DNA of 64,000 bases from a virus, in the IMG/VR virus record IMGVR_UViG_3300045988_105534; one strand, given 5' to 3'. A model generated the notes under the pieces. The model was given only the letters and a program-made list of their open reading frames with translations. It was not told the origin of the DNA and ran no database searches. The stretch's first letter is position 1, and every line of letters starts with the position of its first letter. Shown piece by piece: positions 19,732 through 57,824 of the stretch. The translations under genes and the position numbers were made by a program.

Positions 19732-20682
19732 ATGGCAGCAACACAGTTTGAAGTTATTGAAACAGTAAACAATAATAACGCAGAAGAATCTGAAACAAAG
19801 ATTAAAAGACGCAAGGACGGAAGTCCTAAATGGACTCGATCTAACAAACGGAAAGGCGTATCATCTTTAGTGTATCCGATTAAGAACAGAGAAAAATTTG
19901 CAGCCTTTAATGCATATTTTAGAGATCAGATTGATAAATCATATACAGAGTACAAACGATATGTAGCTGCTAGAAATAATCTTTTGGTTGCAGTTGGAAA
20001 TAATACAGCGTATCGTATTTCTGATATTGTTAGACTTAAATGGGGTGATTTATTAGACGATAAGACTCGTAAGCAGGAAAAGAAAACAAAGAAATTCAGA
20101 ACTGTATACTTTAACGATTTGGTAACTGAAGCAGTGGATATTTTCTTTGAAGCTGTTGCAGGAACTAAATATGATGTCAAGATTGATGGCAAAGTGCCAA
20201 TGGATGATTATGTTTTCGGAACATGTAAGTCTGGATCAGGGCATATGACTGAAGCAAATGCTTTGGATTTTGTTAAAAAAGGTGCTAAGGCAGTTGGAAT
20301 TGAGGATAACATTGGTACACATACATTGCGAAAAAACTTTGTATACTGGACACTTGTTGATCATAAGGATGATCAGAATGTATTGTATACACTTATGAGA
20401 TTACTGAATCATAGTAGTCCTGCAATGACGTTTTTATATGCTACAATTACAGAAGAGGAAACACATGTATTGTTCGATGATATTGCTCAGACGTATAAGG
20501 ATATTATCAGCGGAGTATTTAACGGATTAAAGGAAAATGTTATTAATGTGAGTTATGATAGAGTAATAGAGATTATCAAGTGTGCTTATGAGACAGGGAA
20601 AGATGATGCAGATAAAGATGATGGAGTACATGAGGATAATATGCAAGCATTAAAAGAATTACTGGAAGGAGTTATTTTATGA
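19732..20682 (+). CDS. Tyrosine site-specific recombinase (small integrase/Xer-like)
   Basis: Arg box AYRISDIVRLKWGDL; HxxR in GTHTLRKNFVYW; His-Tyr box LLNHSSPAMTFLYAT. Confidence 0.7.
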   Translation: MAATQFEVIETVNNNNAEESETKIKRRKDGSPKWTRSNKRKGVSSLVYPIKNREKFAAFNAYFRDQIDKSYTEYKRYVAARNNLLVAVGNNTAYRISDIVRLKWGDLLDDKTRKQEKKTKKFRTVYFNDLVTEAVDIFFEAVAGTKYDVKIDGKVPMDDYVFGTCKSGSGHMTEANALDFVKKGAKAVGIEDNIGTHTLRKNFVYWTLVDHKDDQNVLYTLMRLLNHSSPAMTFLYATITEEETHVLFDDIAQTYKDIISGVFNGLKENVINVSYDRVIEIIKCAYETGKDDADKDDGVHEDNMQALKELLEGVIL

Positions 20683-21425
20683 TATTTGTAACAGGAGATA
20701 CGCATGGGGATTGGATGACTCGATTAAACAGTCATTCTTTTCCTGAAGGCGTAGGGTTGACTAAAGATGATTATGTAATCATTTGTGGAGATTTTGGATT
20801 ATGGCATGACACAAAAGAAGAACGACATAATCTGAAATGGTTGGACAACAAACCATTTACTACTTTGTTTGTATGTGGGAACCATGAGAATTATGATAGG
20901 CTGTACGAATATCCTGTAGAGAAATGGTGTGGAGGAAAGATTCATAAGATTTGTAGCTCTGTTTTTCATCTCATGCGAGGACAGGTATTTGATGTCCATG
21001 GAAAGAGATTCTTTACGTTTGGTGGAGCTAGTTCTCACGATGTTCAGGATGGGATTTTAGAGCAAGACGATCCAAGAATTAATGAGTGGTATCGTGATTA
21101 TGACAAAATGTTTAGGATCAATCATACGTCATGGTGGAAAGAGGAGTTGCCTTCAGAAGAAGAAATGACAGAAGGTATGATGAATCTGGAGCAGAATGGA
21201 TCGCAAGTGGATTATATAATTACACATAGTCCATACACATCTGCATTACGTCAAATGGATCAAGGATCAGGAGTGTACAAAACAGATATATTGACGGATT
21301 ATTTGCAAGAGATTAAAGAATCTGTCGAATATAAAAAGTGGTTCTTTGGGCATATGCATGTTAATCAGAACTTTCCAGAAGATAACGCAATTGCAATTTA
21401 CGAACAGATCATTAGGATTTTATAG
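20679..21425 (+). CDS. Calcineurin-like metallophosphoesterase (lambda-phosphatase-like)
   Basis: GDTHGD, CGDFGLWH and GNHEN motifs in canonical order. Confidence 0.75.
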   Translation: MIFVTGDTHGDWMTRLNSHSFPEGVGLTKDDYVIICGDFGLWHDTKEERHNLKWLDNKPFTTLFVCGNHENYDRLYEYPVEKWCGGKIHKICSSVFHLMRGQVFDVHGKRFFTFGGASSHDVQDGILEQDDPRINEWYRDYDKMFRINHTSWWKEELPSEEEMTEGMMNLEQNGSQVDYIITHSPYTSALRQMDQGSGVYKTDILTDYLQEIKESVEYKKWFFGHMHVNQNFPEDNAIAIYEQIIRIL

Positions 21426-21436
21426 GAGAATTTTGT

Positions 21437-21757
21437 ATGAAGATAAATACGATTAGACAAAATAAGGAAGAAAAGAAAGCAAACCAGAATCTTATGTGGA
21501 TTTCAGCAGAGATTCCACCGCTAAAACCAGATAATGCATCACGTTATATGAGATATAAAACATATCCTGTTATCGTGGATTACCAATATAATGATGGATG
21601 TGTGGGCGAAGTGCTTGATTTCTGTGACTATGATTTTGAAGAAAAGAAATGGAAACTGGATAATCCGCATAAAGTTAGACAGTATTTCCCACTTCCAAGT
21701 AAGCACAAAGTAAAGTGTTCGAACAAAAAGAGAACACTTGTTCGAAAAATATCTTGA
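21437..21757 (+). CDS. Hypothetical protein (106 aa)
   Basis: TAGGAGAA Shine-Dalgarno. Confidence 0.55.
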   Translation: MKINTIRQNKEEKKANQNLMWISAEIPPLKPDNASRYMRYKTYPVIVDYQYNDGCVGEVLDFCDYDFEEKKWKLDNPHKVRQYFPLPSKHKVKCSNKKRTLVRKIS

Positions 21758-21829
21758 TTTTGTTCTATGGTAGCATTATAATAAGAAATGTAGAGATTCT
21801 TTGTTCACAATAAAAATTAACTTTCTTTC

Positions 21830-21867
21830 TTGCACCTATTGACAGGGTGCAAAAAGTATGGTATATT
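21830..21867 (+). promoter_or_regulatory. Operator-flanked sigma70 promoter (copy 1): TTGCACC-N-TTGACA-GGGTGCAA ... TATATT
   Basis: TTGACA at 21839-44, 17-nt spacer, TATATT at 21862-67. A 7-bp inverted repeat TTGCACC/GGTGCAA brackets the -35. Near-identical to 63789-63826. Confidence 0.6.
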
Positions 21868-21917
21868 TAATTCATGAAAATAAAAAATACAACTGGGGAA
21901 AGTTGAGGGACGTAAAA

Positions 21918-22367
21918 ATGAACGGATATACTAACAAAGAAAGAAAAGGAAACGATAACAGAAAAAGAAAAGAATATGTATATGGCAAATATCAAAATCC
22001 TCAAGTTTGGGGAATATATTTTGCAGATTTGCCGAAAATTGAAGGTAGTCACATCTTGCATGGGAAAAGACCAGTCATCGTATATTCTAATAATATTTGT
22101 AATAATACGAGCACAGAGATCAACGTGTATCCAATTACAAAAAAATTAAGGAACTGGATACCGACACATGTAACCATTTATCCAAATACCAGTAATGGAT
22201 TAAAAATGGTATCACAGGTGTATTTAGAGCAAGGAAGAACAATTCCAAAGAATAATCTTTTAGAGTATTGGGGAAGAATATCTGATCTATCTTTAATGTT
22301 AAAAATAGGACATGGCATTTTAATACAAAACGGCATGTTATCGTACATGAATGCAATGGCATCCTAG
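21918..22367 (+). CDS. MazF/PemK-like endoribonuclease toxin-fold protein with a basic N-terminal extension
   Basis: GIYFADLPKIEGSHILHGKRPVIVYSN and VYPITKK...TSNGL...LEQGRTI match PemK motifs. Start moved to the ATG with a GAGGGA Shine-Dalgarno, downstream of the promoter. Confidence 0.55.
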   Translation: MNGYTNKERKGNDNRKRKEYVYGKYQNPQVWGIYFADLPKIEGSHILHGKRPVIVYSNNICNNTSTEINVYPITKKLRNWIPTHVTIYPNTSNGLKMVSQVYLEQGRTIPKNNLLEYWGRISDLSLMLKIGHGILIQNGMLSYMNAMAS

Positions 22368-22381
22368 AAATGGAGAATATT

Positions 22382-23398
22382 ATGAATAATAAAGAATTGA
22401 TACAAAATTATATAGATTCTTACGTATCAGAATCACGTCGCCCAACATGGAATTGGTTATTAGATTCTGATATTGCGGACGACAATGAATCTGGGTTAAC
22501 GTATGCACCAGGTACAATCCAAGAGGCTATATTATCAGATACTAGAGGTAAAAAAACCAAAAGTATGAATTCTATTAAAAAAAGATATGACCAGCTTGTT
22601 AAACTATATACTTATGCATATGAACAAAATTACATTAAATATAATCCATTTGTTAATGATAAATTTATAAACTTGCAATTAGCAGTTGATATATATTTTT
22701 CAAATAGAGTTAACGTTAATTATGTTACACCAGATAAAATAAATGCGTTTATTTCGAATCTGATGTCGTGCAATGCATCAGCCGATACCAAATTGAATAC
22801 TAGATTTCACATTGTGAGTTTATATAATGGGATAAATGGAAAGGAGTTAAGAAATCTAAAATTCTCAGATATTAATCAAAATGATTTGACAATTTTTGGG
22901 AAACCAGTCTCCAAAGATTTTATCGAGACATTGAATGAATATAAATTGAAAATGGGAGATACGAATATATATGATGATTTTGTATTAATACCACGAAAAA
23001 AATGTAATAATATAGAAGAATATCAAGCAGAGCAAAAGAGGATATATAATAATGTGCAGTCTCAATTAGAATTAACTGGTAACACTTTATCTTATGAGAA
23101 ATTGACAACCATTGATGTTATTAATTCTGGTTTTATACAATATTTAAAATCTAAAATGGATATCAAGGCAATTGCAGATTTATATTATATTAAATCAAAA
23201 GAAGGAATCGCACGATCTTTAATCGCACGTCAATTTAGTGAAATTGCAATTGAATTTTATTATAATTATTATATATCATATAGATTAAAAAAGAAACAAT
23301 TTAGTGATCGTCAAACTGTAATTGGTAAAACTATTGGTTATCTATATAAAGATGAGGACTATAAGAATTATCGTGTACATCAAATTATGACAGAATAA
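22382..23398 (+). CDS. Hypothetical protein (338 aa)
   Basis: Long ORF with a weak Shine-Dalgarno (GGAGAA); no motif recognised. Confidence 0.5.
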   Translation: MNNKELIQNYIDSYVSESRRPTWNWLLDSDIADDNESGLTYAPGTIQEAILSDTRGKKTKSMNSIKKRYDQLVKLYTYAYEQNYIKYNPFVNDKFINLQLAVDIYFSNRVNVNYVTPDKINAFISNLMSCNASADTKLNTRFHIVSLYNGINGKELRNLKFSDINQNDLTIFGKPVSKDFIETLNEYKLKMGDTNIYDDFVLIPRKKCNNIEEYQAEQKRIYNNVQSQLELTGNTLSYEKLTTIDVINSGFIQYLKSKMDIKAIADLYYIKSKEGIARSLIARQFSEIAIEFYYNYYISYRLKKKQFSDRQTVIGKTIGYLYKDEDYKNYRVHQIMTE

Positions 23399-31285: not shown

Positions 31286-32746
31286 ATGATTGAAGTAATT
31301 GGAACAGTGGTACCAGTGGTTATTGCGGTAGGTGGCGTAGGAGCTATTATCGGTAGCGGTTATGTCAAAGCAAGTCCAGATAAAGCTTATATTATTTCTG
31401 GACTTAGAAAGACACCTAAGACATTAATTGGTAAGGCAGGGTTAAAAATCCCATTCTTTGAAAAAGCAGATCATCTTAATCTTGAGTTAATTCCAATTGA
31501 TGTTAAGACATCAAGTTCTGTGCCTACAGCAGATTATATCAATATCAATGTAGATGCAGCGGTCAATGTAAAGGTTAGCAGTAATCCAGAAAGATTAAAA
31601 CTTGCAGCAGAAAACTTCTTAAATAAGCCAGTAGGCGATATTGGACAGGTCGCAAGAGAAGTCCTTGAAGGTAATATGCGAGAGATCGTTGGAAAGATGA
31701 GCCTCGAAGAAATGGTTTCTGATCGTCAGAAATTTGCACAGCTTGTTACAGAAAATGCGAAGCCAGACCTTGCTGCAATGGGACTAGATATCATCAGTTT
31801 TAATGTGCAGAATTTTATGGATGATAATGATGTTATTGAAAATCTTGGTGTAGATAATGTTGTTAAAATTCAGAAGAAGGCTGCAATTTCCAGAGCTGAA
31901 AGCGAAAGAGATATTGAAAAAGCAAAAGCAATGGCTGAAAAAGAAGCGAATGATGCAAGGGTTGAGTCAGAAACAGCGATCGCAGAAAAGAATAACAATC
32001 TGGAAATTAAAAAATCTGAACTTGAGAAGATTTCAAAAGCAAAGAAGGCTGAGGCAGATGCAGCATACAAGATCCAGGAAGAAAAATCACGTAAAGAAAT
32101 TGAAATTGTAACTGCGGATGCTAATATTATGCGGCAGGAAAAAGAAATTGAACTGAAACGTAAAGACGTTGAGGTAACAGAGCAGACATTAGATGCACAG
32201 ATCAAGAAACAGGCAGAGGCTGAAAGATATGCCTCTCAGCAGAAAGCAGATGCAGATTTATATAAGAGACAGAAAGAGTCAGAAGCTAATAAATATGCTA
32301 AAGAAAAAGAAGCTGAATCTACAAAATATGCTATGGAGCAGGAAGCTGAAGGTATTCGTGCAAAGGGTGTAGCAGAAGCCGAGGCAATCAAAGCTAAAGG
32401 TATTGCTGAAGCAGAAGCAATCGAAAAGAAAGCAGAAGCCATGAAACAGATGGGTAAAGCATCTATTGTAGAAATGATGTGTCAGATGTTCCCAGAGGCA
32501 GTTAAAAATGCAGCCGCACCATTAGGAAATGTAGGAAGTATCACTATGTATGGAGAAGGAAACACAACAAAATTAACAAAAGATATTATGAATGTTGTGA
32601 ATCAGGTATCAGATGGTGTTAAAGGATCTACAGGTGTTGATCTTGCAAAGATGTTAAAAGATTTTGTTTCTGAAGATAACGAAGTAGAATCTACAGATAA
32701 TGTTGGTCAGCCAGAAGTATATTCAGACGATTATCGTGAGTTCTAA
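31286..32746 (+). CDS. Flotillin-like SPFH/Band-7 family membrane protein
   Basis: N-terminal transmembrane helix, then an SPFH domain, then a long E/A-rich coiled coil (AEAEAIKAKGIAEAEAIEKKAEA) and a C-terminal flotillin tail. 486 aa. Confidence 0.85.
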   Translation: MIEVIGTVVPVVIAVGGVGAIIGSGYVKASPDKAYIISGLRKTPKTLIGKAGLKIPFFEKADHLNLELIPIDVKTSSSVPTADYININVDAAVNVKVSSNPERLKLAAENFLNKPVGDIGQVAREVLEGNMREIVGKMSLEEMVSDRQKFAQLVTENAKPDLAAMGLDIISFNVQNFMDDNDVIENLGVDNVVKIQKKAAISRAESERDIEKAKAMAEKEANDARVESETAIAEKNNNLEIKKSELEKISKAKKAEADAAYKIQEEKSRKEIEIVTADANIMRQEKEIELKRKDVEVTEQTLDAQIKKQAEAERYASQQKADADLYKRQKESEANKYAKEKEAESTKYAMEQEAEGIRAKGVAEAEAIKAKGIAEAEAIEKKAEAMKQMGKASIVEMMCQMFPEAVKNAAAPLGNVGSITMYGEGNTTKLTKDIMNVVNQVSDGVKGSTGVDLAKMLKDFVSEDNEVESTDNVGQPEVYSDDYREF

Positions 32747-39506: not shown

Positions 39507-39674
39507 ATGAAAACAAGACAAGAACGTAAACAGGAAATAAAACGATTCTTTGATCGGTTGAGTCCGCAGGAATTGGACGCACTGTTAGAAAGAAATGGAA
39601 TCAATGATAAAGAGTCAAAAGAGGCTCTTTCATATAGAATTATTAAAGAAGAAATTGAGAAAGGAGAGATATAA
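39507..39674 (+). CDS. Small basic protein (55 aa), not in the ORF track
   Basis: MKTRQERKQEIKRFFDRLSPQELDALLERNG...; stop overlaps the next ATG. Confidence 0.4.
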   Translation: MKTRQERKQEIKRFFDRLSPQELDALLERNGINDKESKEALSYRIIKEEIEKGEI

Positions 39675-40021
39675 TGAACCACTTCTTATATATTGAATCA
39701 CGGGAAGAAGAGAATACATCCCTCGATTCTAAACGTGTTTTATTAAATGAAGAAAATTACAAACATATTATTTCATCATTAGATCATTATCCACCGACGG
39801 CAGATGAAGTTAAGAGAGCAATTTGTATTTTGATAGGACGATTGATCTATAGAAGCGTTTGGAATATGGAATCTGATATTGATAGTTTAAATATGAGTTT
39901 ATCCCCGCCAAAAGAAATGACGGTTGCAGAAATCGAAAAAGAACTCGGTCATAAAGTAAAAATTGTAGAGGAGAAAGAATGCCAATGGCAAAAAAGAAAC
40001 AAGGAATGTCGTTTGAAATGA
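39674..40021 (+). CDS. Hypothetical protein (115 aa)
   Basis: GAGAAAGGAGAG Shine-Dalgarno. Confidence 0.6.
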   Translation: MNHFLYIESREEENTSLDSKRVLLNEENYKHIISSLDHYPPTADEVKRAICILIGRLIYRSVWNMESDIDSLNMSLSPPKEMTVAEIEKELGHKVKIVEEKECQWQKRNKECRLK

Positions 40022-40290
40022 TGATGCAAAATATGGAAATTAATCCAAGACAATTGTATCGTCGTAGTTCGTGGAAGAAGACACGAACAACTTATGATTA
40101 TGTGTTTATGATGTGCGAAGAAGAATTAAATGAGATTATTCCATTTGATAAAAAATATAAAATGAAACCACTCTTATGTAGAGACCAAAATGGAGTTATA
40201 ACATTGGGATGGTTGCCTACACAAGAGGATATTTTCGCAAATGATTGGGTTGAGCAAGGATGGGATTTTAACAGTAAAAGGAAGAGGTGA
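40006..40290 (+). CDS. DUF2829 (Tad2-like) protein, copy 1; alternative start 39979
   Basis: N-terminus MSFEMMMQ...YRRSSW and C-terminus GWLPTQEDIFANDWV match the conserved ends of DUF2829 proteins. Confidence 0.5.
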   Translation: MSFEMMMQNMEINPRQLYRRSSWKKTRTTYDYVFMMCEEELNEIIPFDKKYKMKPLLCRDQNGVITLGWLPTQEDIFANDWVEQGWDFNSKRKR

Positions 40291-40298
40291 GTAATTAA

Positions 40299-40583
40299 TT
40301 GAATTTTATAAAAGCAATGACTGCAATAAAAAAAGACAAAACGACTATAAGAAGAGGCATTTGGGGAAAGGAAAAGTATTTGAAAATTTATTCGTCAGAA
40401 TTAACTAATGTTTATTTTGAGTGTAATGATATGGGTGAATATAAGCCAGATTCAATTATTTTTTTATTTGATAAAGAAAACGCAGAAGTTTGGATACCTC
40501 TTGCGGAAGATGTATATGCAGATGACTGGGAAATATATGTTGAGTCAATTAATAAAGGTGAGCAGATAAAGGAGGAAAAATAA
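40299..40583 (+). CDS. DUF2829 (Tad2-like) protein, copy 2; TTG start
   Basis: MNFIKAMTAIKKDKTTIRRGIWGKEKYL ... VWIPLAEDVYADDWEIY; AGGAAGAGGTGAG Shine-Dalgarno before TTG. Confidence 0.55.
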   Translation: MNFIKAMTAIKKDKTTIRRGIWGKEKYLKIYSSELTNVYFECNDMGEYKPDSIIFLFDKENAEVWIPLAEDVYADDWEIYVESINKGEQIKEEK

Positions 40584-41536
40584 TGAAGTGTTTTTATCAT
40601 GTTGATCAAGACGGAATCGTGTCTGGATTCTACGTCAGAAAAGCTTGTGAACAGCGAGGTTTAGCATTTGAACCAGAGGACTTCCGAAAAATTAATTACG
40701 GTATGAAATTCCCGTTTCATGACATTAAACAGGATGAATTTGTATTCATTGTAGACTACAGCATTGAGCCAGAAGAAATGTGGCAGTTGTTTAGTATTAC
40801 AAAGAATGTATTTTGGATCGACCATCATCAATCTACGATTGAAACGTATAAAGATTTTAAGTGTGATGTGAAAGGAATTCGAATCACTGGAGAAGGTATT
40901 TCAGGAGCGAATTTGACATGGTTATATTTTAAAGAAATGTGTGACGAAGATTGGGAACAAATTGAGAGGACGGATGAGAAAAATGTAAAAAGATTACTCA
41001 ATATATATAAATATAAAGAAGATTATCCAAAACTGGCAGAATATACAGCCATGTGGGATACATTTTATTTTGGTGCAACGTCAAAAAAATTCATAAAAGC
41101 ATTTCACTATGCATTTGAATCGTATGATTTTGATGCGTTAAGTCCATTGCTAAACACGTTAAATGAAGATCAAGGAATTTATGAAGCAGCAAAAATTATT
41201 GGTGATATGATAACAGATGGCTTATCAATTATTGAGTATTTAGCAGCAAATGCAGAACAGTATCTTAGAGCATATGGTTTTGAAACCACATTTGAGGGAC
41301 ATAAAGTCTATGCTATCAACCGAGCATTAATCAATTCTGATTTCTTTGAATCTATTGATGCTTCTAAATATGATATGTTCATTGGTTTTTCGTTCAATGG
41401 TAGTATGTGGGAATATCAGTTACGATCAGCAGAACAGGATAAAGTAAATGTGTATGAGCTTGCTGTGAAATATGGTGGTGGCGGTCATCCAAATGCAGCT
41501 GGATTTAGAAGTGAGAAATACATGTTAGGAGTGTGA
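40583..41536 (+). CDS. DHH-DHHA1 family phosphoesterase (NrnA/GdpP-like nanoRNase / pAp / cyclic-nucleotide phosphodiesterase)
   Basis: HVDQDGIVSG and IDHHQST are DHH motifs; GGGHPNAAG is a DHHA1 motif. 317 aa, the size of stand-alone NrnA. Confidence 0.8.
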   Translation: MKCFYHVDQDGIVSGFYVRKACEQRGLAFEPEDFRKINYGMKFPFHDIKQDEFVFIVDYSIEPEEMWQLFSITKNVFWIDHHQSTIETYKDFKCDVKGIRITGEGISGANLTWLYFKEMCDEDWEQIERTDEKNVKRLLNIYKYKEDYPKLAEYTAMWDTFYFGATSKKFIKAFHYAFESYDFDALSPLLNTLNEDQGIYEAAKIIGDMITDGLSIIEYLAANAEQYLRAYGFETTFEGHKVYAINRALINSDFFESIDASKYDMFIGFSFNGSMWEYQLRSAEQDKVNVYELAVKYGGGGHPNAAGFRSEKYMLGV

Positions 41537-41539
41537 TGT

Positions 41540-42301
41540 ATGGATAAAGGTATAACTATAGAATTTTATAGGAATTATGAATTTGATATTGTGCGAGGTA
41601 TTTGTCTTGGAGATGAATCAACAAAAATTGACTTCCCTATAAATGATGAAACTTTAAACATAATGGCTTCAGATTTTCAATATAATGAACAAACTATACA
41701 GTTAGATTATGGTTATAAATATAGAAGAAAAAATTATGTAAAAATCGACGAAATGCAAGCTACATCAACAAATATATTGTCATGTAACGGAATTATATTA
41801 AAAGATGGCATTAAGTTTTTTATTGGTGAAGCAGTAATGGATGTTTCTAGTGGAAAAGAAATATATAAATTATATGACAAAGATGTATATAAAGATAAAA
41901 CTTATTATAATCAAACGAAAGAAATGGTATTTGAATGGGCAAAGAAAGATATATATAAAGTTGTAATGATGATGGACAGGATTGCAGGAGAGGCAATTAA
42001 TCGAGCGATGACCGAATATGCTAATCACGGATCTTTGTATCGTATGTTCTTTCCACCTAATATTCCTGAGCCACAATATAGTTATTCTATGCATGATTTA
42101 TACTTGATGACTGATCCTAATATAATGAAGGGTGACATTCGTAGGCGTATATGCTGCAAGGTACCTAATTTTGATAGGAGGGTGAGGAAATGGGATTATA
42201 GTGCAGATCGTTATGAACATTACTTAGTGTTGGATTACAGTAAGGAAATCAATAAATTCATTAAAGAACAGGAGGATAAAAAATGTGAAGAAATTAAATG
42301 A
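41540..42301 (+). CDS. Hypothetical protein (253 aa)
   Basis: TAGGAGTG Shine-Dalgarno. Confidence 0.6.
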   Translation: MDKGITIEFYRNYEFDIVRGICLGDESTKIDFPINDETLNIMASDFQYNEQTIQLDYGYKYRRKNYVKIDEMQATSTNILSCNGIILKDGIKFFIGEAVMDVSSGKEIYKLYDKDVYKDKTYYNQTKEMVFEWAKKDIYKVVMMMDRIAGEAINRAMTEYANHGSLYRMFFPPNIPEPQYSYSMHDLYLMTDPNIMKGDIRRRICCKVPNFDRRVRKWDYSADRYEHYLVLDYSKEINKFIKEQEDKKCEEIK

Positions 42302-42818
42302 TGAACAGCGAAAGCTGATTGAAGATAACTATTCTTTGATTTGGCATTTGCATGAAAAGTATTTTACAAAATTTACAGATTTTGATACATATATGGATCT
42401 TGGGCGTATGGCAATTTGTAAAGCAGCATTAAAATGGGACGAGTCTAAAGGAACTTTTGGTACATATCTCTTCTGGGTATTACGTTCAGAAGTGAATCAA
42501 TATTATACAAAATGGCACAGACCAACAGAAAAAATGAATAGGAATGCTGAATCGTTAGATACGCCATTGGCAGGATATGAACCAGAAGATGATATTACAA
42601 TCGGAACAACACTGATGAGTGGGGATAACGTAGAAGATGAGGTACTTACAAAGGTACATTTTCAAAATGAGTTTGATAAATTGGCACCGAGAAATAAAAA
42701 GATTATTGTTTTAAAGCAGAAAGGTTTAACACAAAGACAAATTGCAAGTCAGCTTGGAATCACTCATCAGTGGGTTAGTCAAAATATTGTACAGTTTAAG
42801 AAAGCATTATGTGGATAA
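42285..42818 (+). CDS. Sigma-70 family RNA polymerase sigma factor (phage-encoded), paralog 1
   Basis: Region 2-like FGTYLFWVLRSEV and region 4 HTH LTQRQIASQLGITHQWVSQNI. GTG start with AGGAGGA Shine-Dalgarno. N-terminus parallels 48538. Confidence 0.8.
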   Translation: MKKLNDEQRKLIEDNYSLIWHLHEKYFTKFTDFDTYMDLGRMAICKAALKWDESKGTFGTYLFWVLRSEVNQYYTKWHRPTEKMNRNAESLDTPLAGYEPEDDITIGTTLMSGDNVEDEVLTKVHFQNEFDKLAPRNKKIIVLKQKGLTQRQIASQLGITHQWVSQNIVQFKKALCG

Positions 42819-42831
42819 AAGAGGTGAGATC

Positions 42832-43665
42832 ATGACAATTGAAGAAGTAAAGGATTACATAAACTCGTCTACAGAGTATGATTTTTTGCGAGATTATCCG
42901 CATAAAATTGCTTTTCTAACATTAGGTGGAAGTTATGCCTATGGAACAAATACAGAGGATTCTGACATTGATTTACGTGGCGTTTTCCTTAGTGATAAAA
43001 GAGAGATTTTGTTGAACAATAATCAAAACAATCTTGAGAAGACCGATGATCGTAAAGACGTTGATACTGTGATACATTCGCATATTAAGATGATCAACAT
43101 GCTTGCTAAGGGTAATCCTACGTTTTTAGAGTTGCTATACTTTGCACCAGATCGCTATTTGTATGTATCCGATATTGGTATGGAGTTGATCAAAAATAGA
43201 GATATGTTCTTATCTAAGAGAGTTTATCATGCATATAAAGGATATATATGTGATTGCCTGACTCGAACGAGTTTTAAGTATTATAAAAATAAAGATTCAG
43301 AGAAAGAAAAGCAAAAGGCGGAACGATACGCTAATAAATCAATGATGCACGCAGTTCGATTATTGTTACAGGGCATTGAATTATTGCATAACGGAACAAT
43401 GTTAGGATCTATGGATGACATAGGAAAAGATCTTGTAAAGATCAAAGAAGGATATAATAGTACGCATAAAACATATAGATTTGGCAAACACAATGAGCAT
43501 ACAGAATATTTCCCAAATCAGTCATACGATGTTTTTATTGAAGGATTACTTTATCAATTTGATTATGATTATATGAATACTGATTTGCCAGACGAACCAG
43601 ACTGGGATCGTATCAATAACTTCTTGATGACAACAAATGAACGAATTGTGAGAGGAATGGTGTAA
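42832..43665 (+). CDS. Pol-beta superfamily nucleotidyltransferase
   Basis: IAFLTLGGSYAYGTNTEDSDIDLRGVF matches the GS-x(9-10)-DxD nucleotidyltransferase motif; AAGAGGTGAG Shine-Dalgarno. Confidence 0.65.
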   Translation: MTIEEVKDYINSSTEYDFLRDYPHKIAFLTLGGSYAYGTNTEDSDIDLRGVFLSDKREILLNNNQNNLEKTDDRKDVDTVIHSHIKMINMLAKGNPTFLELLYFAPDRYLYVSDIGMELIKNRDMFLSKRVYHAYKGYICDCLTRTSFKYYKNKDSEKEKQKAERYANKSMMHAVRLLLQGIELLHNGTMLGSMDDIGKDLVKIKEGYNSTHKTYRFGKHNEHTEYFPNQSYDVFIEGLLYQFDYDYMNTDLPDEPDWDRINNFLMTTNERIVRGMV

Positions 43666-44463: not shown

Positions 44464-44801
44464 TGGATATACATATTGGAGATTTTTGGCAGAGTAAATG
44501 TAATCCAAAAGTAATTCAACATGTAGTTAATTTTTCATTTAGAATGGGTGGAGTCCCAAGTAGTAAAGATATGCTACTGGTCTGTGAAGAATTTCATTAT
44601 ACAAAGATAGGTGAGAATCCTGCCTCTGTCAAAGAAGATTCCAGATTCTTTTCACATATTACAGTGGATAATTTTAAAAAGATGAATCAATGTATTCTAA
44701 GTGCTGAGAGGATTATGAAAGATACTCAGGCATTTAAAACAGATAAAGATATTTTGGATTATTTAACGAAGAAAGTGGAGGAGAAATTAAATGCAAAATA
44801 A
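44463..44801 (+). CDS. Hypothetical protein (112 aa)
   Basis: AAAGGAGAAAG Shine-Dalgarno. Confidence 0.55.
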   Translation: MDIHIGDFWQSKCNPKVIQHVVNFSFRMGGVPSSKDMLLVCEEFHYTKIGENPASVKEDSRFFSHITVDNFKKMNQCILSAERIMKDTQAFKTDKDILDYLTKKVEEKLNAK

Positions 44802-45264
44802 TATATTTCAGATTTATTTGGCTGGCGGTATGCAGGATTTATCATTTGAAGAGCAGAATACTTGGAGAGAAAGAATTTGCAATCAAATTATTGCTATGCG
44901 TAGAATACTTAATGTTAATATGAAAGAAGTCAACATTATTAACCCCGTTGATTATTACAATTTTCAAACAGAGTTACATGATACAGAAAAAGAAGTAATG
45001 AGATTTGATACAAATTTTGTTAGAAATAGTGATCTTGTTGTGGTAAATGCGAATGATCCGAAGAGCATTGGTACATCTATGGAGATTGCAATTGCATATG
45101 AACGTCATATTCCTGTACTGATTTTGAATACAGAAAAGAAAAGATTGCATGCTTGGTGGGTGCAAATGTCTGACAAGATATTTGACGATGAGAAAAAATT
45201 ATGTACATATATATATGACTTTTATCTCAGGATGAATCATAGTAGTATTCGAGCATGGGTGTAA
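44791..45264 (+). CDS. Nucleoside 2-deoxyribosyltransferase-fold protein (NDT / dNMP N-hydrolase-like)
   Basis: IYLAGGM near the N-terminus; SDLVVVN ... GTSMEIAIAYERHIPVL carries the catalytic Glu in a GT-x-x-E context typical of the NDT/Rcl fold. Confidence 0.55.
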   Translation: MQNNIFQIYLAGGMQDLSFEEQNTWRERICNQIIAMRRILNVNMKEVNIINPVDYYNFQTELHDTEKEVMRFDTNFVRNSDLVVVNANDPKSIGTSMEIAIAYERHIPVLILNTEKKRLHAWWVQMSDKIFDDEKKLCTYIYDFYLRMNHSSIRAWV

Positions 45265-48537: not shown

Positions 48538-49080
48538 ATGTCGTTGAAATTAAATGACGAACAGAGAAAATTAGTAGAACAAAATCATAATTTGATTTAC
48601 TCTGCTATGACAAAATGCGGTATCCGCAGACAAGATTTTGATGACTATTATGGATTCGCTGCTATTGGGTTGTGTAAGGCAGCAATTGATTATGATAAAA
48701 CACGATCTAAATCATTTTCGACATATGCGTATTTATGTATACAAAATGAAATAACGGTATATAACAAATACAGATTTCGGCAGAGAAGAAAGGGTGATAT
48801 GAATACTATTTCATATAATCATATGTTAGATGATTGGGATGAAGACAAAAATGAAAATTCATTTCTTTTAAAGGATGAAGAAAATTTTGAAAAAAATATT
48901 ATTTTTAAGTTGAATTTTCAAGATAAATGTTACACACTAAATAATAAGGACAGAATGATTGTTGATTTAAAATCAAAAGGTTATACATATCAAGAAATTG
49001 CAAAAATGTTTGGTACATCATTTCAAGCGATACAACAAAAGATTAAAAAAATGCGATCAACAACATTTTCCAGATTATAA
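48538..49080 (+). CDS. Sigma-70 family RNA polymerase sigma factor (phage-encoded), paralog 2
   Basis: MSLKLNDEQRKLVEQNHNLIY; region 2-like FSTYAYLCIQNEI; C-terminal HTH YTYQEIAKMFGTSFQAIQQKI. Confidence 0.8.
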   Translation: MSLKLNDEQRKLVEQNHNLIYSAMTKCGIRRQDFDDYYGFAAIGLCKAAIDYDKTRSKSFSTYAYLCIQNEITVYNKYRFRQRRKGDMNTISYNHMLDDWDEDKNENSFLLKDEENFEKNIIFKLNFQDKCYTLNNKDRMIVDLKSKGYTYQEIAKMFGTSFQAIQQKIKKMRSTTFSRL

Positions 49081-53939: not shown

Positions 53940-54968
53940 ATGTTAGACAATATAAAAAAAGAACTATTGTCTAATCCTGAAAAAATAAGAGAAGTCTTGG
54001 AGCATTTTGATTATTATCATGTAGTGATCAGAAACACATATATGTCATTTGGTCGAGATGAGGTCTCTTCAAAGAAGTCCATAGTAATCAATCTGAAAAA
54101 TAACAAAGCGTTGTTTGTGCATGATTATGCTAGAGCAATCCAAAAAGATTTGTTCTCATATATTATGCAGCAACGTGGAGTTGATTTTGCAGAGGTTTTA
54201 GGAGTTGTTAAAAACATCTTAGGGATTACTGATTACTATGATTTCTTTGATAGACAAGGTATTTTTGGCGGATTTTATGAAAGGATTAGAAATCACAATG
54301 TAGTTCGAATCCAAACTTATGATGAATCTATATTAGATAAATACAATAATGTAGGGAATTTAAGATTCCTTAAAGATAATATATCACTTGAAGCACAAAG
54401 AACTTTTGGCATTCGGTTTGATACATCATCTCAAGGGATCGCAATTCCGATTAGAAATCAATTAGGACAACTAATTGGCGTAAAAGAAAGATTTAACTAT
54501 GACGTTGAAGATGGTGAAATGAAATATTTCTACGATGTTCCGTGTCAAATGTCTCAAACATTATATGGATATTCTCAGAATTATCAGTATTTAGCCAACG
54601 GTGTTGTGTTGATATTTGAGGCAGAGAAATCTGTAATGCAGTGTTTTACATATGGAATTAGAAACTGTGTGGCACTTGGTAGTGGAACAATCAGCAAGAA
54701 ACAGGTGCAATTATTATTGGAATTAAATCCTAAAAAAGTAATATTTATGCATGACGTTGGCTATGATATTAAGAATATCATGAGAAATATTGACATGGTA
54801 AAAGGATATTCAAGATTTGCTGAGATTGAGTTAGGATACTGGGACTTTAATTTAAGTGAGTATTCCAATAAGGTATCACCGTCCGATATGGGAAAAGAAA
54901 AGTTAAATTACATATTAGAAAACGAAATAAAAATGATAGGGGATGAAGACGTCGAAGAAGAAATATAA
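53940..54968 (+). CDS. Toprim-domain DNA primase (DnaG-like catalytic core)
   Basis: Toprim motifs IFEAEKSVM (Glu) and FMHDVGYD (DxD). Confidence 0.6.
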   Translation: MLDNIKKELLSNPEKIREVLEHFDYYHVVIRNTYMSFGRDEVSSKKSIVINLKNNKALFVHDYARAIQKDLFSYIMQQRGVDFAEVLGVVKNILGITDYYDFFDRQGIFGGFYERIRNHNVVRIQTYDESILDKYNNVGNLRFLKDNISLEAQRTFGIRFDTSSQGIAIPIRNQLGQLIGVKERFNYDVEDGEMKYFYDVPCQMSQTLYGYSQNYQYLANGVVLIFEAEKSVMQCFTYGIRNCVALGSGTISKKQVQLLLELNPKKVIFMHDVGYDIKNIMRNIDMVKGYSRFAEIELGYWDFNLSEYSNKVSPSDMGKEKLNYILENEIKMIGDEDVEEEI

Positions 54969-56562
54969 CATTTTGAACGATTGCAGAGGACTTTTTGAAG
55001 ATGAGGTATTTGAAATTATCATGCAGGAGCGTGGTATTGACGATCCAGAACATTTTCTAAATCCTACGGAAGATGATTTACTTTCTCTTGATGACTTAAA
55101 AAATATTGATAAAGCATACAGACTCGTGATGAGTGCGGTGAATGAAGATAAACGTATTGCAGTACATTTTGATACAGATACTGACGGCATCACATCTGGT
55201 GCCGTTATGACACGATATTTAAAAAACATGACAGAAAATCCAGTAGATGTATACATTAACCGAGGCAAACAGCATGGATTAGCAAATCAGGACATTGCTA
55301 AGTTTTATGGGTATGATTTACTGATTGTCGTTGATAGTTTGGATAAAGACGAGACTCAGTATAAGGATTTAAAAGAAACAGGAGTTGATGTGATTGTGTT
55401 AGACCACCATGCCATCGATCCAGATGTTCCTTATGACAACTATTGCACATTAGTTTCTTCTCAGAGAGAATATGAAAATCCACAGTTATCTGGTGCAGGT
55501 GTTGTCTGGAAGTTTTGCAAGTATATTGATGAGCAGAATGGTACAGATTATGCAGATAATTTGGTCGATCTAGCAGGCGTTGGGCTGATTGCAGATATGA
55601 TGGATATGAGAGTAATGGAGAATCGTTACATTGTATCCGAAGCTTTGAAAGAAATTAGAAATCCTGCGATTAAGAAGATTATTGGTGGATTTGAATTCAA
55701 CAGCACAGCAGTTGCTTTTAGTATTGCACCGTTGGTTAATGCTGCAAACAGAATGGATCAGAATGAAATTGCTCTAAATGCTTTCCTTGAAGATGACAAT
55801 AAAAAGTTACGAGGATATATTAAACAATTAAAGCAATGCAAAGAAGACCAAAATGAAGAGGTCGCACAGCTGATGCCAATGATTGCGGAACAGTGTGAAG
55901 CTCAGAGTGATAAAAAGATGATCACAACTTTTATCGACACTGATTATGGTATTTCTGGGTTAATTGGAAACAAATTGCTTGAAAAATACCAGAAGCCGAT
56001 TCTTGTGCTAAAGAAAAATGAAGATACATATGCAGGATCTATGAGAGCAGTTGGTGTAAAAGACTTCCGACAGATGTGTAATAACAGTCAGTTGGCTGAA
56101 GCAAATGGACATGAACTTGCCAGTGGTATTGAAATTCCTAGAAAGAACTTTGCTGAGTTCACCTCTTATATAGAAGAAACTCTTCCAGATAAGCCAGAAG
56201 ATACAACAGTTGATGTCGATATTATGCTTGATATTTCAGACATCACAAGAAAAATGGTTGACATGATTAAGAAAATTGATCGTATTTCTGGGCAAGGATT
56301 TAAACCTGTAAGAGTTTATATTGAAGAGATTGACGACTATGACATTGGTCAGATGAGCAATTATAAACATCTTGTCCTGAAACCATGTAACAATGATAAA
56401 TTGTGGATCATTAAATGGAACTATGATGGATCGTTTGAGGATATGGAAGACCATTCTATGATGAATGATGAGTTTTGTGCAGTTACTACACTTGATTGCG
56501 GATTCTTTGGAAGAAAGTTTGTGCTGAAAGCTGTGTGTGATTCACTTGAAGAGGTGGGATGA
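54943..56562 (+). CDS. RecJ-like DHH-family single-stranded DNA exonuclease (start uncertain; alternative ATG at 55021)
   Basis: AVHFDTDTDGITSGAV and VLDHHAID are DHH motifs; RecJ-like linker; 513-539 aa. Confidence 0.7.
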   Translation: MKTSKKKYNILNDCRGLFEDEVFEIIMQERGIDDPEHFLNPTEDDLLSLDDLKNIDKAYRLVMSAVNEDKRIAVHFDTDTDGITSGAVMTRYLKNMTENPVDVYINRGKQHGLANQDIAKFYGYDLLIVVDSLDKDETQYKDLKETGVDVIVLDHHAIDPDVPYDNYCTLVSSQREYENPQLSGAGVVWKFCKYIDEQNGTDYADNLVDLAGVGLIADMMDMRVMENRYIVSEALKEIRNPAIKKIIGGFEFNSTAVAFSIAPLVNAANRMDQNEIALNAFLEDDNKKLRGYIKQLKQCKEDQNEEVAQLMPMIAEQCEAQSDKKMITTFIDTDYGISGLIGNKLLEKYQKPILVLKKNEDTYAGSMRAVGVKDFRQMCNNSQLAEANGHELASGIEIPRKNFAEFTSYIEETLPDKPEDTTVDVDIMLDISDITRKMVDMIKKIDRISGQGFKPVRVYIEEIDDYDIGQMSNYKHLVLKPCNNDKLWIIKWNYDGSFEDMEDHSMMNDEFCAVTTLDCGFFGRKFVLKAVCDSLEEVG

Positions 56563-57824
56563 TTATGGCAGGAAAAGAAGTATTTTGTTCAGTCTGCGGT
56601 TTATCATCTACTTTGGACGGACATTTTTGGAAAGAAAAGAAGTTGTGCAACAGACACAATATGCAGTTAGAAAAACATGGAAAACTGTTAGATAAAGATA
56701 TAGTGATCCCTAAAAAGAGACATAGATGGACTCCAGAAGAAGAAGTCAGATTAGAAGAGTTGTATAAACAAGGAGTTTCTTTTGAAAAAATTAGTAAACA
56801 AATGAATCTATCCGTGGCAGCCATAGCGGCTCGAAGTCGTCATTTGAATCTTGGCAATAAGTATATGAGGTCTAATAATCCTAATTTTAAAGCCACATAT
56901 CAGGATTATGATTGGTGTTATGAAAGATATGTTGTTAAGGGAATGACTCATCAAGAAATGGCAGATGAATGTGGTGTCTCGTTAAGAGTTATTCAGAAAT
57001 GGTGTTCTGAAGTTCATAAATTAAATTGTTGGACTTTCAAAAACAATAAGACATTAACCGATAAACAGTATCAAATTATTTTATTTGGCACATTAGGGGA
57101 TGGGCATATTGATAAAAGAGAGACGCAACCTTTGTATATTGAATGTCATTCTATAGCAGAAAAGGATTACGTGTTTTGGAAATATGAAGAATTAAAAGAT
57201 TTATGTAACTCTGAGCCAAAGTATTATGAAGGTGGCTATAAAGATTTTGGTTCTGGTACAAAGTATTGGTGTAAACCACATTACAGATTTGAGACAAGAA
57301 TTATTAATCAATTGAAGGACATTCGAGACATGCCAAGAATCAATAAGATTTGGCAATTGAATGAATTTGGATTATCTCTTCATTGCTTAGACGATGGATG
57401 CAGAGGTAAATCAGCGTGGGAATTATGTTTGGCAGAATATACTCAGCAAGAAATTGATTTATATATCAAGCTGTGTAAAAAGAGATTTGGGTTATATGCT
57501 AAACAGCAGACAGATAAAAGATATATAAGATTTGATTCAGATTCAAGTAGAATTATTGATCAAATTATTTTAAACAATATTCCTAATTCGCTTGACATTA
57601 TCAAAAAGAAGATATTAGAAAACGATAAAATTTCTAAAAAAGTAAGATACATTTATGTTGTCATGCAGAACGGAGAACAGATTGGTTTATCTACATATTG
57701 TAGATCTCATGGTATTCCATATGAAAAGACAAGAAAATATGTCATTGAGCACAATATCTCTCGAATTCAAGAAGCTGATCTACTAAATAGATTAAAAGCT
57801 GGAGGATTAATGAATGCGGTATAA
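56559..57824 (+). CDS. Free-standing LAGLIDADG-family homing endonuclease with N-terminal zinc-ribbon/HTH region
   Basis: Two LAGLIDADG-like motifs, ILFGTLGDGHI and LHCLDDGCRGKS; N-terminal CSVCG...CNRH and an HTH-like RWTPEEEVRLEELYKQGVSFEKIS. Confidence 0.6.
   Translation: MIMAGKEVFCSVCGLSSTLDGHFWKEKKLCNRHNMQLEKHGKLLDKDIVIPKKRHRWTPEEEVRLEELYKQGVSFEKISKQMNLSVAAIAARSRHLNLGNKYMRSNNPNFKATYQDYDWCYERYVVKGMTHQEMADECGVSLRVIQKWCSEVHKLNCWTFKNNKTLTDKQYQIILFGTLGDGHIDKRETQPLYIECHSIAEKDYVFWKYEELKDLCNSEPKYYEGGYKDFGSGTKYWCKPHYRFETRIINQLKDIRDMPRINKIWQLNEFGLSLHCLDDGCRGKSAWELCLAEYTQQEIDLYIKLCKKRFGLYAKQQTDKRYIRFDSDSSRIIDQIILNNIPNSLDIIKKKILENDKISKKVRYIYVVMQNGEQIGLSTYCRSHGIPYEKTRKYVIEHNISRIQEADLLNRLKAGGLMNAV

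Follow-up and report, generated by a model that had tools for sequence, protein, structure and literature searches.

Two Tad2-like genes in a hypervariable slot and the neighbouring DHH-DHHA1 phosphoesterase gene of a phage lineage

In a 64,000-nucleotide stretch of viral DNA (IMG/VR record IMGVR_UViG_3300045988_105534; hereafter, the window), two small Tad2-like genes, designated TadA and TadB, are directly followed by a gene for a 317-aa protein with DHH and DHHA1 domains. This arrangement raises the question of whether the three genes form a single sequester-and-destroy module, as the initial annotation had proposed, in which the sponges would bind cyclic or linear oligonucleotide signals for hydrolysis by the DHH enzyme, or whether they are separate units that share a border. 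The features of the locus are listed in Table 1.

Table 1. Features of the locus and of the replication module, in window coordinates
Feature	Coordinates	Strand	Basis
Left junction 14-mer TAGAGGAGAAAGAA, RBS-like	39966..39979	+	Aligned to Tad-less relative L056
TadA, Tad2-like (DUF2829/PF11195) paralog 1, 103 aa	39979..40290	+	Pfam PF11195 match
Accessory cassette (indel) with the Tad2 pair, in hypervariable slot	39980..40566	.	Comparison with Tad-less relatives
TadB, Tad2-like paralog 2, 94 aa, TTG start	40299..40583	+	Pfam PF11195 match
Right junction 14-mer TAAAGGAGGAAAAA, RBS of the DHH gene	40567..40580	+	Aligned to Tad-less relative L056
Stand-alone DHH-DHHA1 phosphoesterase, 317 aa, lineage core gene	40583..41536	+	Catalytic motifs, two-domain model
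p253, lineage-specific protein	41540..42301	+	Synteny
Phage sigma-70-family factor	42285..42818	+	phrog_351 E=9e-27; Pfam Sigma70_r2 and r4
RlaP-family RNA 3'-end nucleotidyltransferase	42829..43665	+	Pfam PF10127 RlaP 87.2 bits (gathering threshold 23)
Genuine RecJ, 539 aa, replication module	54943..56562		phrog_2484 E=1e-111; TIGR00644 310 bits

The Tad2-like pair and its slot

The assignment of both small proteins to DUF2829/Tad2, made initially from their motifs, holds: each scores above the PF11195 gathering threshold of 25 bits, TadA with 34.2 bits over residues 10-91 (profile positions 1-71 of 73) and TadB with 46.3 bits over the entire profile (positions 1-73 of 73). The family profile of TadA matches HgmTad2/AcrIIA7 (8kbi; E=2.6e-4) in the C-terminal ~33 residues only, and the Tad2 of phage SPO1, gp34.65 (8sme), aligns with TadB end to end (residues 1-79; E=2e-4). 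A homologue of TadB with 76% identity carries the NCBI name 'Thoeris anti-defense Tad2 family protein'. The two proteins are diverged paralogs with ~26% identity, and dN/dS values of 0.11-0.14 for TadA and 0.28-0.30 for TadB reveal purifying selection on both. The AF2 model of TadA, built on a shallow alignment of 13 sequences, has a pLDDT of 39.5 and is too low in confidence for use; the alignment is shallow because the word-indexed homologue searches gave close relatives only. TadA and TadB invariably occur together, including in homologues with as little as 68-78% identity, and no Tad2-like gene besides these two was found in the window. A second, unrelated tandem DUF2829 pair is present in the loci L174 and L131.

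The residues through which SPO1 Tad2 contacts gcADPR (W25, N26, W73, T78 and D79) are kept only in part. Equivalents of W73 and D79 are present in both TadA and TadB, the first Trp is displaced by one column, Asn26 is replaced by Gly in TadB and by Lys in TadA, and Thr78 is replaced by Glu in both. Because of this partial conservation, the ligands of the pair are not readable from SPO1 Tad2 and may differ from its own. Judged from sequence, TadA and TadB probably act as sponges; they would most likely be small oligomeric proteins that bind the nucleotide signals of host immunity, each with its own specificity or both within a mixed oligomer.

A comparison with Tad-less relatives defines the pair as a cassette of 587 bp, with DNA homology that ends at position 39979 and restarts at 40567. 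The 14-mers at the two junctions are identical at 11 of 14 positions, and a single 14-nt segment in the Tad-less relative L056 aligns to both borders. The slot was found in five states: empty, with the Tad pair, with the Tad pair and a gene for an NDT-like protein of 137 aa, with the NDT-like gene alone, and with a gene for a 209-aa protein; the last gave a probability below 1% against the CCA/PolyA_pol head domain in hhalign. Among near-identical relatives, 28 of 54 loci anchored on the DHH gene contain the Tad pair, as do 28 of 52 loci fetched through RlaP, while none of these relatives lacks the DHH gene. No GenBank phage matched the region in a megablast search.

These results bear directly on the proposed module, since about half of the near-identical phages keep the DHH gene without the pair. 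The same separation is seen at greater distance, where no Tad2 gene lies within three genes of DHH in any of 28 distant viral clusters or 38 bacterial or archaeal genome loci. TadB and the DHH gene are directly adjacent, with a stop/start overlap of 1 nt and no terminator between them, and possible translational coupling had been suggested; however, in Tad-less relatives unrelated genes precede DHH and overlap its start by 4 nt. Co-transcription is likewise uninformative, because no terminators are predicted anywhere within 38.4-44 kb, a region in which promoter-like sites occur at chance level. The module would be consistent with the slot being a hot spot for accessory genes and with the ability of DHH-family enzymes to degrade c-di-AMP, pApA, cyclic oligoadenylates (Sulfolobus MAD) and SAM-AMP (NrN), but given the optional pair we consider it very unlikely. 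The adjacency of the Tad2 pair and the DHH gene is most likely a chance of insertion. The optional presence of the pair, the precise borders, the five slot states and the lack of distant adjacency argue strongly that the two are independent units, which we regard as highly probable. More generally, adjacency and coupling-like overlaps in tightly packed phage genomes constitute weak evidence for a module.

Identity of the DHH-DHHA1 enzyme

The 317-aa protein displays the complete catalytic motifs of a stand-alone DHH-DHHA1 enzyme, in agreement with the initial annotation. DHH motifs I-IV (DxD, D, DHH, D) and the GGGH motif of DHHA1 are all present; H6, D8/D10, D58, D80-H81-H82, D159 and G298-G301-H302 are fully or almost fully conserved in an alignment of 23 sequences, and a confident model has the two-domain DHH plus DHHA1 fold. 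The protein is nevertheless divergent, with Pfam scores below threshold for both domains (DHH, 19.8 bits versus 28.1; DHHA1, 21.7 versus 25.9), and it matches phrog_4771 with E=1e-34. Its best relatives in sequence and structure are NrnA-type proteins and an uncharacterised DHH protein from H. pylori, yet the NrnA equivalog NF053633 yields only 16 bits where its cut-off is 350, and among the arginines in the R-x-R-x-R segment of NrnA just one is retained (LRS). GdpP, in which transmembrane, PAS and degenerate GGDEF domains precede DHH-DHHA1, likewise differs in architecture from the 317-aa protein, which consists of DHH-DHHA1 only and has motif I at residues 6-10. Two family members (P0007 and P0071) bear the JGI automatic name 'oligoribonuclease NrnB/cAMP/cGMP phosphodiesterase', and another (P0113) is fused to a P-loop domain that has no Pfam match and whose PDB matches are spurious (designed repeat proteins).

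An identity as a RecJ paralog, an exonuclease that acts on ssDNA in recombination or replication, was dropped, as the window encodes a genuine RecJ elsewhere. The gene of the 317-aa protein lies outside the replication module that contains this RecJ, and the protein comprises the two core domains without the additional domains of RecJ and gives no match to TIGR00644. The protein is distinct from the phage's RecJ, and we regard a RecJ-like function as extremely improbable.

Gene neighbourhoods and the possible role of the DHH enzyme

The gene order in the window is DHH-p253-sigma-RlaP, which places RlaP two genes downstream of DHH. In the clade of the window, the p253 gene always separates the DHH gene from the sigma gene. 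The p253 protein has no match in Pfam, PHROG or NCBIfam, and its candidate identities as a divergent Thg1, u313, CCA or RlaP protein were rejected by hhalign (all probabilities <1%). In two clusters with 44-47% identity (L061 and L119), too, the gene immediately after DHH encodes a sigma factor. RlaP, the sole recognisable RNA-repair neighbour within the clade, is linked to DHH in 52 of 52 loci of the lineage, a set that was itself fetched through RlaP. Its alleles, with 98%, 77% and 54% identity, have been swapped, yet always lie beside a ~95%-identical DHH gene. No RNA ligase (Rnl or RtcB) and no Pnkp were found among the ~70 window ORFs scanned, the genome being ~160 kb in size.

Across the DHH family, RlaP lies at most three genes from DHH in 10 of 33 clusters (38-99% identity), although such counts do not represent independent events because the clusters are phylogenetically related. 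Other RNA-repair neighbours are the CCA-adding enzyme, Thg1 and RtcB. The observed gene orders include RlaP-u313-CCA-DHH-Thg1 (L059), RlaP-CCA-DHH (L137, L141 and L228), RlaP-x-DHH (L132) and RlaP-u313-CCA-RtcB-x-x-PurA-DHH::P-loop (L257). Besides its presence in L257, RtcB adjoins one other DHH family member, and the same RNA-repair block is found in three Lachnospiraceae/Eubacteriales genomes. In ~20 of the 33 clusters there is no RNA-repair neighbour and the surroundings are mixed, with one Tad3 and, in some clusters, nucleotide-metabolism genes (dCMP deaminase, dNMP kinase, NT5C, PurA). RNA-repair neighbours are commoner and more operon-like than the latter.

Because the partners kept across deep divergence are RlaP, the CCA-adding enzyme, a Thg1-like polymerase and RtcB, an action of the DHH enzyme on RNA ends is proposed. 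RlaP, whose family biochemistry has been described (PMC12776372), and the CCA-adding enzyme require a 3'-OH, and ribotoxins leave phosphorylated ends; a 3'-end-healing phosphoesterase would therefore be needed. DHH enzymes include 3'-phosphatases (NrnA on pAp) as well as 3'-5' exoribonucleases (NrnB, COG2404). The DHH enzyme is encoded by a fixed gene of a ~160-kb gut-phage lineage. In the proposed mechanism, it would work on the ends of tRNAs cut by host ribotoxins, either by taking off a 2',3'-cyclic phosphate or a 3'-phosphate or by trimming damaged nucleotides from the 3' end, after which the RNA 3' end would be rebuilt by RlaP or the CCA-adding enzyme. This role is put forward tentatively, with a likelihood somewhat below even. 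It is weakened by the lack of a ligase, Pnkp or RtcB among the scanned ORFs, by RlaP being the only such neighbour in the clade (neither p253 nor the 209-aa slot protein is detectably Thg1- or CCA-like), by the many clusters without an RNA-repair neighbour and by the phylogenetic relatedness of the clusters. Moreover, accessory genes gather directly upstream of DHH, which would also be compatible with an anti-signalling role.

Two other functions have to be weighed against RNA-end repair. As a nanoRNase (NrnA/NrnB-like) or pAp phosphatase, the enzyme would serve nucleotide salvage: short oligoribonucleotides left over when host RNA is degraded would be converted into mononucleotides that supply the replication of the phage. 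The JGI name on two family members, the NrnA-type nearest relatives, the nucleotide-metabolism neighbours and the P-loop fusion are consistent with this function, but the very low NrnA equivalog score, the loss of all but one Arg of the R-x-R-x-R segment, the lack of an identifiable family for the P-loop domain and the more frequent linkage to RNA repair make it unlikely. Alternatively, the enzyme could be a stand-alone phosphodiesterase that, independently of the Tad2 cassette, degrades the nucleotide signals of host immunity (cyclic oligoadenylates, cyclic dinucleotides or SAM-AMP). Iyer et al. 2021 (PMC7824862) predicted such an activity for the DHH phosphodiesterases of jumbo phages, and MAD and NrN are host precedents. 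It would agree with the intact catalytic motifs and with the accessory and anti-defence genes close by (the Tad2 slot, one Tad3, and the Tad2 pair located 10 genes upstream of DHH in L174); we nonetheless hold it to be quite improbable here.

Returning to RNA-end repair, the favoured reading of the locus combines a pair of Tad2 sponges with a DHH enzyme that acts on RNA ends, as counter-defence units independent of each other; taken as a whole, it may equally well prove right or wrong. The broadest form of the proposal is speculative and rather unlikely in its entirety: the phrog_4771 DHH branch would be an unrecognised end-healing or trimming enzyme of the RlaP/CCA-adding/Thg1/RtcB tRNA repair by which large phages would resist tRNA-cleaving defences, and TadA/TadB would separately constitute a hetero-oligomeric or dual-specificity sponge.

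Comparison with known systems

TadA and TadB resemble the characterised Tad2 proteins (SPO1 gp34.65, HgmTad2/AcrIIA7 and MoTad2) in being small phage proteins of ~90-100 aa that score above the Pfam threshold, and both keep the C-terminal W-x-P-x-x-x-D-x-x-A-x-D-W segment. The Tad2 fold consists of alpha1 and a five-stranded sheet, and Tad2 assembles into a homotetramer with pockets at its interfaces. TadA and TadB differ from the characterised proteins in that they are tandem, diverged paralogs that are always inherited together, and in that TadA is extended at its N terminus and contains an insertion. Two sponge units at one locus are also known from the stacked or fused sponges Tad2-Acb4 and Tad2-Sequestin, in which the fusion widens the range of signals blocked. 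By contrast, TadA and TadB belong to the same family and are encoded by separate genes. Sponges known to date form homo-oligomers. A tandem pair of Tad2 paralogs that are inherited together would extend "sponge stacking" from fusions to gene pairs, possibly with mixed oligomers. Owing to the slot, near-isogenic phages that differ in the presence of the pair exist in nature and offer a ready test system with gut Lachnospiraceae hosts.

The 317-aa protein shares the two-domain fold, the full DHH motifs with GGGH and the size of ~300-320 aa with NrnA/Pde2, Rv2837c, TM1595, DhhP, PggH and NrnB. Unlike these stand-alone enzymes, to which its identity is only 12-19%, it fails the NrnA equivalog and its DHHA1 GGGH segment is the only part detected by a sequence profile; it represents a separate, mostly phage-borne branch (phrog_4771). 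The statement of the initial annotation that the DHH-DHHA1 fold had never been described as a phage counter-defence enzyme has to be corrected. Iyer et al. 2021 (PMC7824862, section 3.4.8) predicted that jumbo-phage DHH phosphodiesterases counter the signals of SMODS/CBASS and type III CRISPR, and a phage DHH protein as a counter-signal enzyme is not new because it was proposed in that work. We found no experimental test of this prediction in the literature, and the DHH family members with documented activity on signalling nucleotides include the host enzymes MAD (cyclic oligoadenylates) and NrN (SAM-AMP). As in the jumbo phages, the DHH gene is phage-encoded and lies among counter-defence genes, whereas the conserved neighbours of the window family are RNA-repair genes, and RNA repair is treated as a separate system by Iyer et al. 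2021 (PMC7824862).

Among RNA-repair systems (T4 Pnkp-Rnl1; RtcB-RtcA-RlaP; the phage RlaP/CCA/Thg1 sets), the closest correspondence is with those containing RlaP, which lies two genes from DHH in the window and forms RlaP-CCA-DHH-Thg1 and RlaP-CCA-RtcB blocks in relatives. The window differs from them by the lack of a detectable ligase. In known systems, healing is carried out by a Pnkp of HAD type or metallophosphoesterase type, or else the CCA-adding enzyme does so through its HD domain; no DHH enzyme was found with a 3'-end-healing role in the RNA-repair literature examined. If the proposal is true, healing or trimming by a DHH enzyme would fill a gap named in the RlaP literature and would constitute a new enzyme class for phage tRNA repair.

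The Tad2 pair and its hypervariable slot

The two small ORFs that the initial annotation assigned to the DUF2829/Tad2 family and the DHH-DHHA1 gene behind them are real and correctly identified. ORF reading recovered all three at the positions tabulated below, together with the motifs quoted for them, and both small proteins, TadA and TadB, exceed the gathering threshold of the Pfam PF11195 Tad2-like family (34.2 and 46.3 bits, respectively; threshold 25). TadB aligns end-to-end with the crystallised SPO1 Tad2 (E=2e-4), and TadA, searched with a family profile, matches HgmTad2/AcrIIA7 in its C-terminal third only (E=2.6e-4). The paralogs share about 26% identity. Neither TadA nor TadB occurs without the other; purifying selection acts on both, and they have diverged in step, down to about 70-78% identity. 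Such diverged Tad2 paralogs inherited as a pair are of interest.

The surroundings of the pair were surveyed in 54 close relatives retrieved via the DHH gene. The block comprising DHH, the ORF p253, a sigma factor and the RNA 3'-end nucleotidyltransferase RlaP is constant across them, and the segment just upstream of DHH is hypervariable. This slot is empty in 6 relatives, and contains the Tad2 pair alone in 14, the pair plus a nucleoside-deoxyribosyltransferase (NDT)-like gene of ~137 aa in 14, the NDT-like gene alone in about 13, and a 209-aa gene without a family match in 7. The NDT-like and 209-aa genes may also act in counter-defence or nucleotide modification. DNA homology with Tad-less relatives ends at 39979 and restarts at 40567, so that the Tad2 pair corresponds to a cleanly bounded indel of 587 bp (39980-40566), and similar RBS-like 14-mers flank it. 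The insertion altered the C-terminus of the upstream ORF up115, which ends on the DHH start in Tad-less relatives and on the TadA start in the window. That a paired Tad2 cassette is naturally present in some phages and absent from others, within a hypervariable slot, is of interest. In one relative the DHH gene is split into two ORFs, either by a frameshift (pseudogene) or by an assembly error, and several related phages carry IS605 OrfB/TnpB (Cas12f-like) insertions a few kb from the locus.

The proposal that the pair and the DHH enzyme form a two-part module, which sequesters and destroys immune signals, fails the comparative test. When loci were refetched with RlaP as the anchor, removing the DHH-anchoring bias, the DHH gene was present in 52 of the 52 loci with enough upstream sequence, versus 28 for the Tad2 pair. 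The viral-contig DHH family was grouped at 90% identity into 33 clusters; Tad2 lies within three genes of DHH in only three of them, all from the clade of the window itself (at least 79% identity), and in none of 28 diverged viral clusters. The adjacency is likewise missing from all 38 bacterial or archaeal loci examined. All detectable TadB homologs, down to 68% identity, belong to the same lineage and the same slot. The tight TadB-DHH junction, taken initially as a sign of possible translational coupling, is a 1-nt stop/start overlap and nothing special, because Tad-less phages show a 4-nt overlap of the DHH start with the gene in front of it. No terminators are predicted within 38.4-44 kb. 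The apparent module arose by chance, through insertion of a cassette.

Coordinates and gene orders of the features discussed (window positions, or locus of a related phage)
Feature	Location	Strand	Remarks
Tyrosine recombinase	19732-20682	+	cluster 19732-23398
Calcineurin-like phosphoesterase	20679-21425	+	same cluster
MazF-like protein	21858-22367	+	same cluster
Second integrase-like gene	22370-23398	+	same cluster
SPFH/Band-7 plus flotillin protein	31286-32746	+	486 aa; phage-encoded
up115	39674-40021	+	overlaps TadA start by 43 nt
TadA	39979-40290	+	103 aa
TadB	40299-40583	+	94 aa
DHH-DHHA1 gene	40583-41536	+	317 aa
Sigma-70-family factors (two)	42285-42818, 48538-49080	+	6 kb apart
Nucleoside 2-deoxyribosyltransferase-like protein	44791-45264	+	157 aa; PF05014, 32 bits; conserved in relatives; paralog-like counterpart of NDT-like slot gene
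RecJ, genuine	54943-56562	+	TIGR00644, 310 bits
HNH/LAGLIDADG homing-endonuclease-like matches	56559-57824	+	421 aa; after RecJ
NDT-like slot protein	L010:5581-5994, L006:5603-6001		132-137 aa; PF15891, 26-28 bits, just under threshold
209-aa slot protein	L001:5321-5950		GGxxR...DIDVVID nucleotidyltransferase-like N-terminus
Split DHH gene	L035:6001-6831 (= L097)
IS605 OrfB/TnpB	L253:2643-4268, L254:2576-4201, L059:1073-2314
RlaP alleles	L258-L308, 6001-6834		= window 42829-43665
u313	L059:5701-6642; also L142, L174, L215, L216, L257		conserved; about 313-322 aa
P0113	L257:8001-9377		DHH-DHHA1 fused to ~150-aa C-terminal P-loop (FPGCGKTY) domain
Canonical third Tad2	L086:14010-14273		87 aa; Pfam 97 bits; one close relative
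Second tandem DUF2829 pair	L174:1570-1962 and 1982-2380 (also L131:1777-2178)		130 and 132 aa
DHH-p253-sigma-RlaP	window's clade		gene order
RlaP-u313-CCA-adding enzyme-DHH-Thg1	L059		gene order
RlaP-u313-CCA-DHH	L142, L174, L215, L216		gene order
RlaP-CCA-DHH	L137, L141, L228		gene order
RlaP-x-DHH	L132		gene order
RlaP-u313-CCA-RtcB-x-x-PurA-DHH::P-loop	L257		gene order

RNA-repair genes beside the DHH enzyme

The linkage of this phage DHH-DHHA1 branch to genes for RlaP, CCA-adding enzyme, Thg1 and RtcB is recurrent and of interest, and our literature search found it undescribed. RlaP (PF10127) lies within three genes of DHH in 10 of the 33 clusters, spanning 38-99% identity, and such counts overstate independence, as the clusters are related by descent. 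Besides the L257 arrangement, RtcB lies within three genes of DHH in one further family member. The RlaP alleles of the window's lineage are about 98%, 77% or 53-55% identical to the window's RlaP and are always kept beside a ~95%-identical DHH gene, a pattern of allelic replacement with strict gene retention. A sigma gene also lies near DHH, directly 3' of it, in the clusters at 44-47% identity (L061, L119). The protein u313, always encoded between RlaP and the CCA-adding enzyme, is likely another component of the RNA-repair block. The fusion protein P0113, whose P-loop domain has no Pfam or PDB match, is encoded beside adenylosuccinate synthase, and an RlaP-u313-CCA-RtcB block lies three genes upstream of it.

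Large phages are recognised to restore RNA ends with RlaP, CCA-adding enzyme and Thg1 (PMC7824862, section 3.4.9); RlaP has been shown to extend RNA 3'-OH ends by one or two nucleotides and to contribute to the restoration of damaged tRNA (PMC12776372). Ribotoxin cleavage products end in a 2',3'-cyclic or 3'-phosphate, so such a pathway would need a phosphoesterase ahead of RlaP-type enzymes, and DHH activities include a 3'-phosphatase (NrnA on pAp) and a 3'-5' exoribonuclease (NrnB). From the gene linkage, we infer that the DHH enzyme may serve to heal or trim the ends of RNA. A salvage nanoRNase and a stand-alone signal-degrading enzyme stay live as alternatives, because no RNA ligase or Pnkp was found among roughly 70 window ORFs scanned, about 20 of the 33 clusters have no RNA-repair neighbour of DHH, and the clusters are kin. 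The neighbours in those ~20 clusters include dCMP deaminase, dNMP kinase, NT5C, CTP_transf_like, metallophosphoesterases and one Tad3, and the nucleotide-metabolism genes among them would fit salvage. Neither p253 nor the 209-aa slot protein is detectably Thg1- or CCA-like. As to signal degradation, host-encoded DHH enzymes act in this way (MAD on cOA, NrN on SAM-AMP), and the idea of a DHH-DHHA1 counter-defence enzyme in phages, initially considered new, was already proposed for jumbo-phage DHH phosphodiesterases by Iyer et al. 2021 (PMC7824862); a literature search turned up no phage DHH enzyme that has been tested by experiment.

Phage and host

The window comes from a large phage; its genes are tightly packed, all on the + strand, and its GC content is ~33%. 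It encodes a PolIII-alpha-type DNA polymerase, DnaB, primase, a RecD/ExoV-like helicase and a genuine RecJ, as well as two sigma factors, recombinases and antirepressors. A 421-aa protein with HNH and LAGLIDADG homing-endonuclease-like matches is wedged between the RecJ and DNA polymerase genes. GC dips at the recombinase cluster (0.283 at 22-24 kb), which may thus be a mobile insert or a toxin module. A DNA similarity search found no close relative among GenBank phages; the lineage consists of viral contigs of roughly 150-170 kb that are abundant in metagenomes. One related contig stems from an Anaerostipes isolate assembly, and Lachnospiraceae and Eubacteriales genomes hold more distantly related versions of the DHH block; taken together, these findings point to gut Clostridia as the likely hosts.

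Ligand contacts of SPO1 Tad2 and their equivalents in the paralogs

In SPO1 Tad2, gcADPR is contacted by W25, N26, W73 and D79, with contributions of T78, S76 and H71. The equivalents of W73 and D79 are kept in TadA and TadB; both lack Asn26, have the first Trp one column off and carry Glu for Thr78. The canonical third Tad2 of one relative, encoded about 6.5 kb downstream of DHH, retains the SPO1 contact set, with GWNGK and W..SQTD intact. A Tad2 of this type was looked for in the window and is absent, so the lineage has another variable anti-defence site at that position. The second tandem DUF2829 pair, located ten genes upstream of DHH, is unrelated to TadA/TadB; each member combines a short Tad2-like N-terminal domain with a shared C-terminal extension of ~65 aa, and the W73 equivalent is missing from both.

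The most economical reading of TadA and TadB is that they may act as two sponges, each for a ligand of its own, or assemble into a mixed oligomer. Known Tad2 homologs have diversified towards cGAMP-type signals, His-ADPR, cUMP/cCMP and N7-cADPR, and the stacking of sponges by fusion is frequent.
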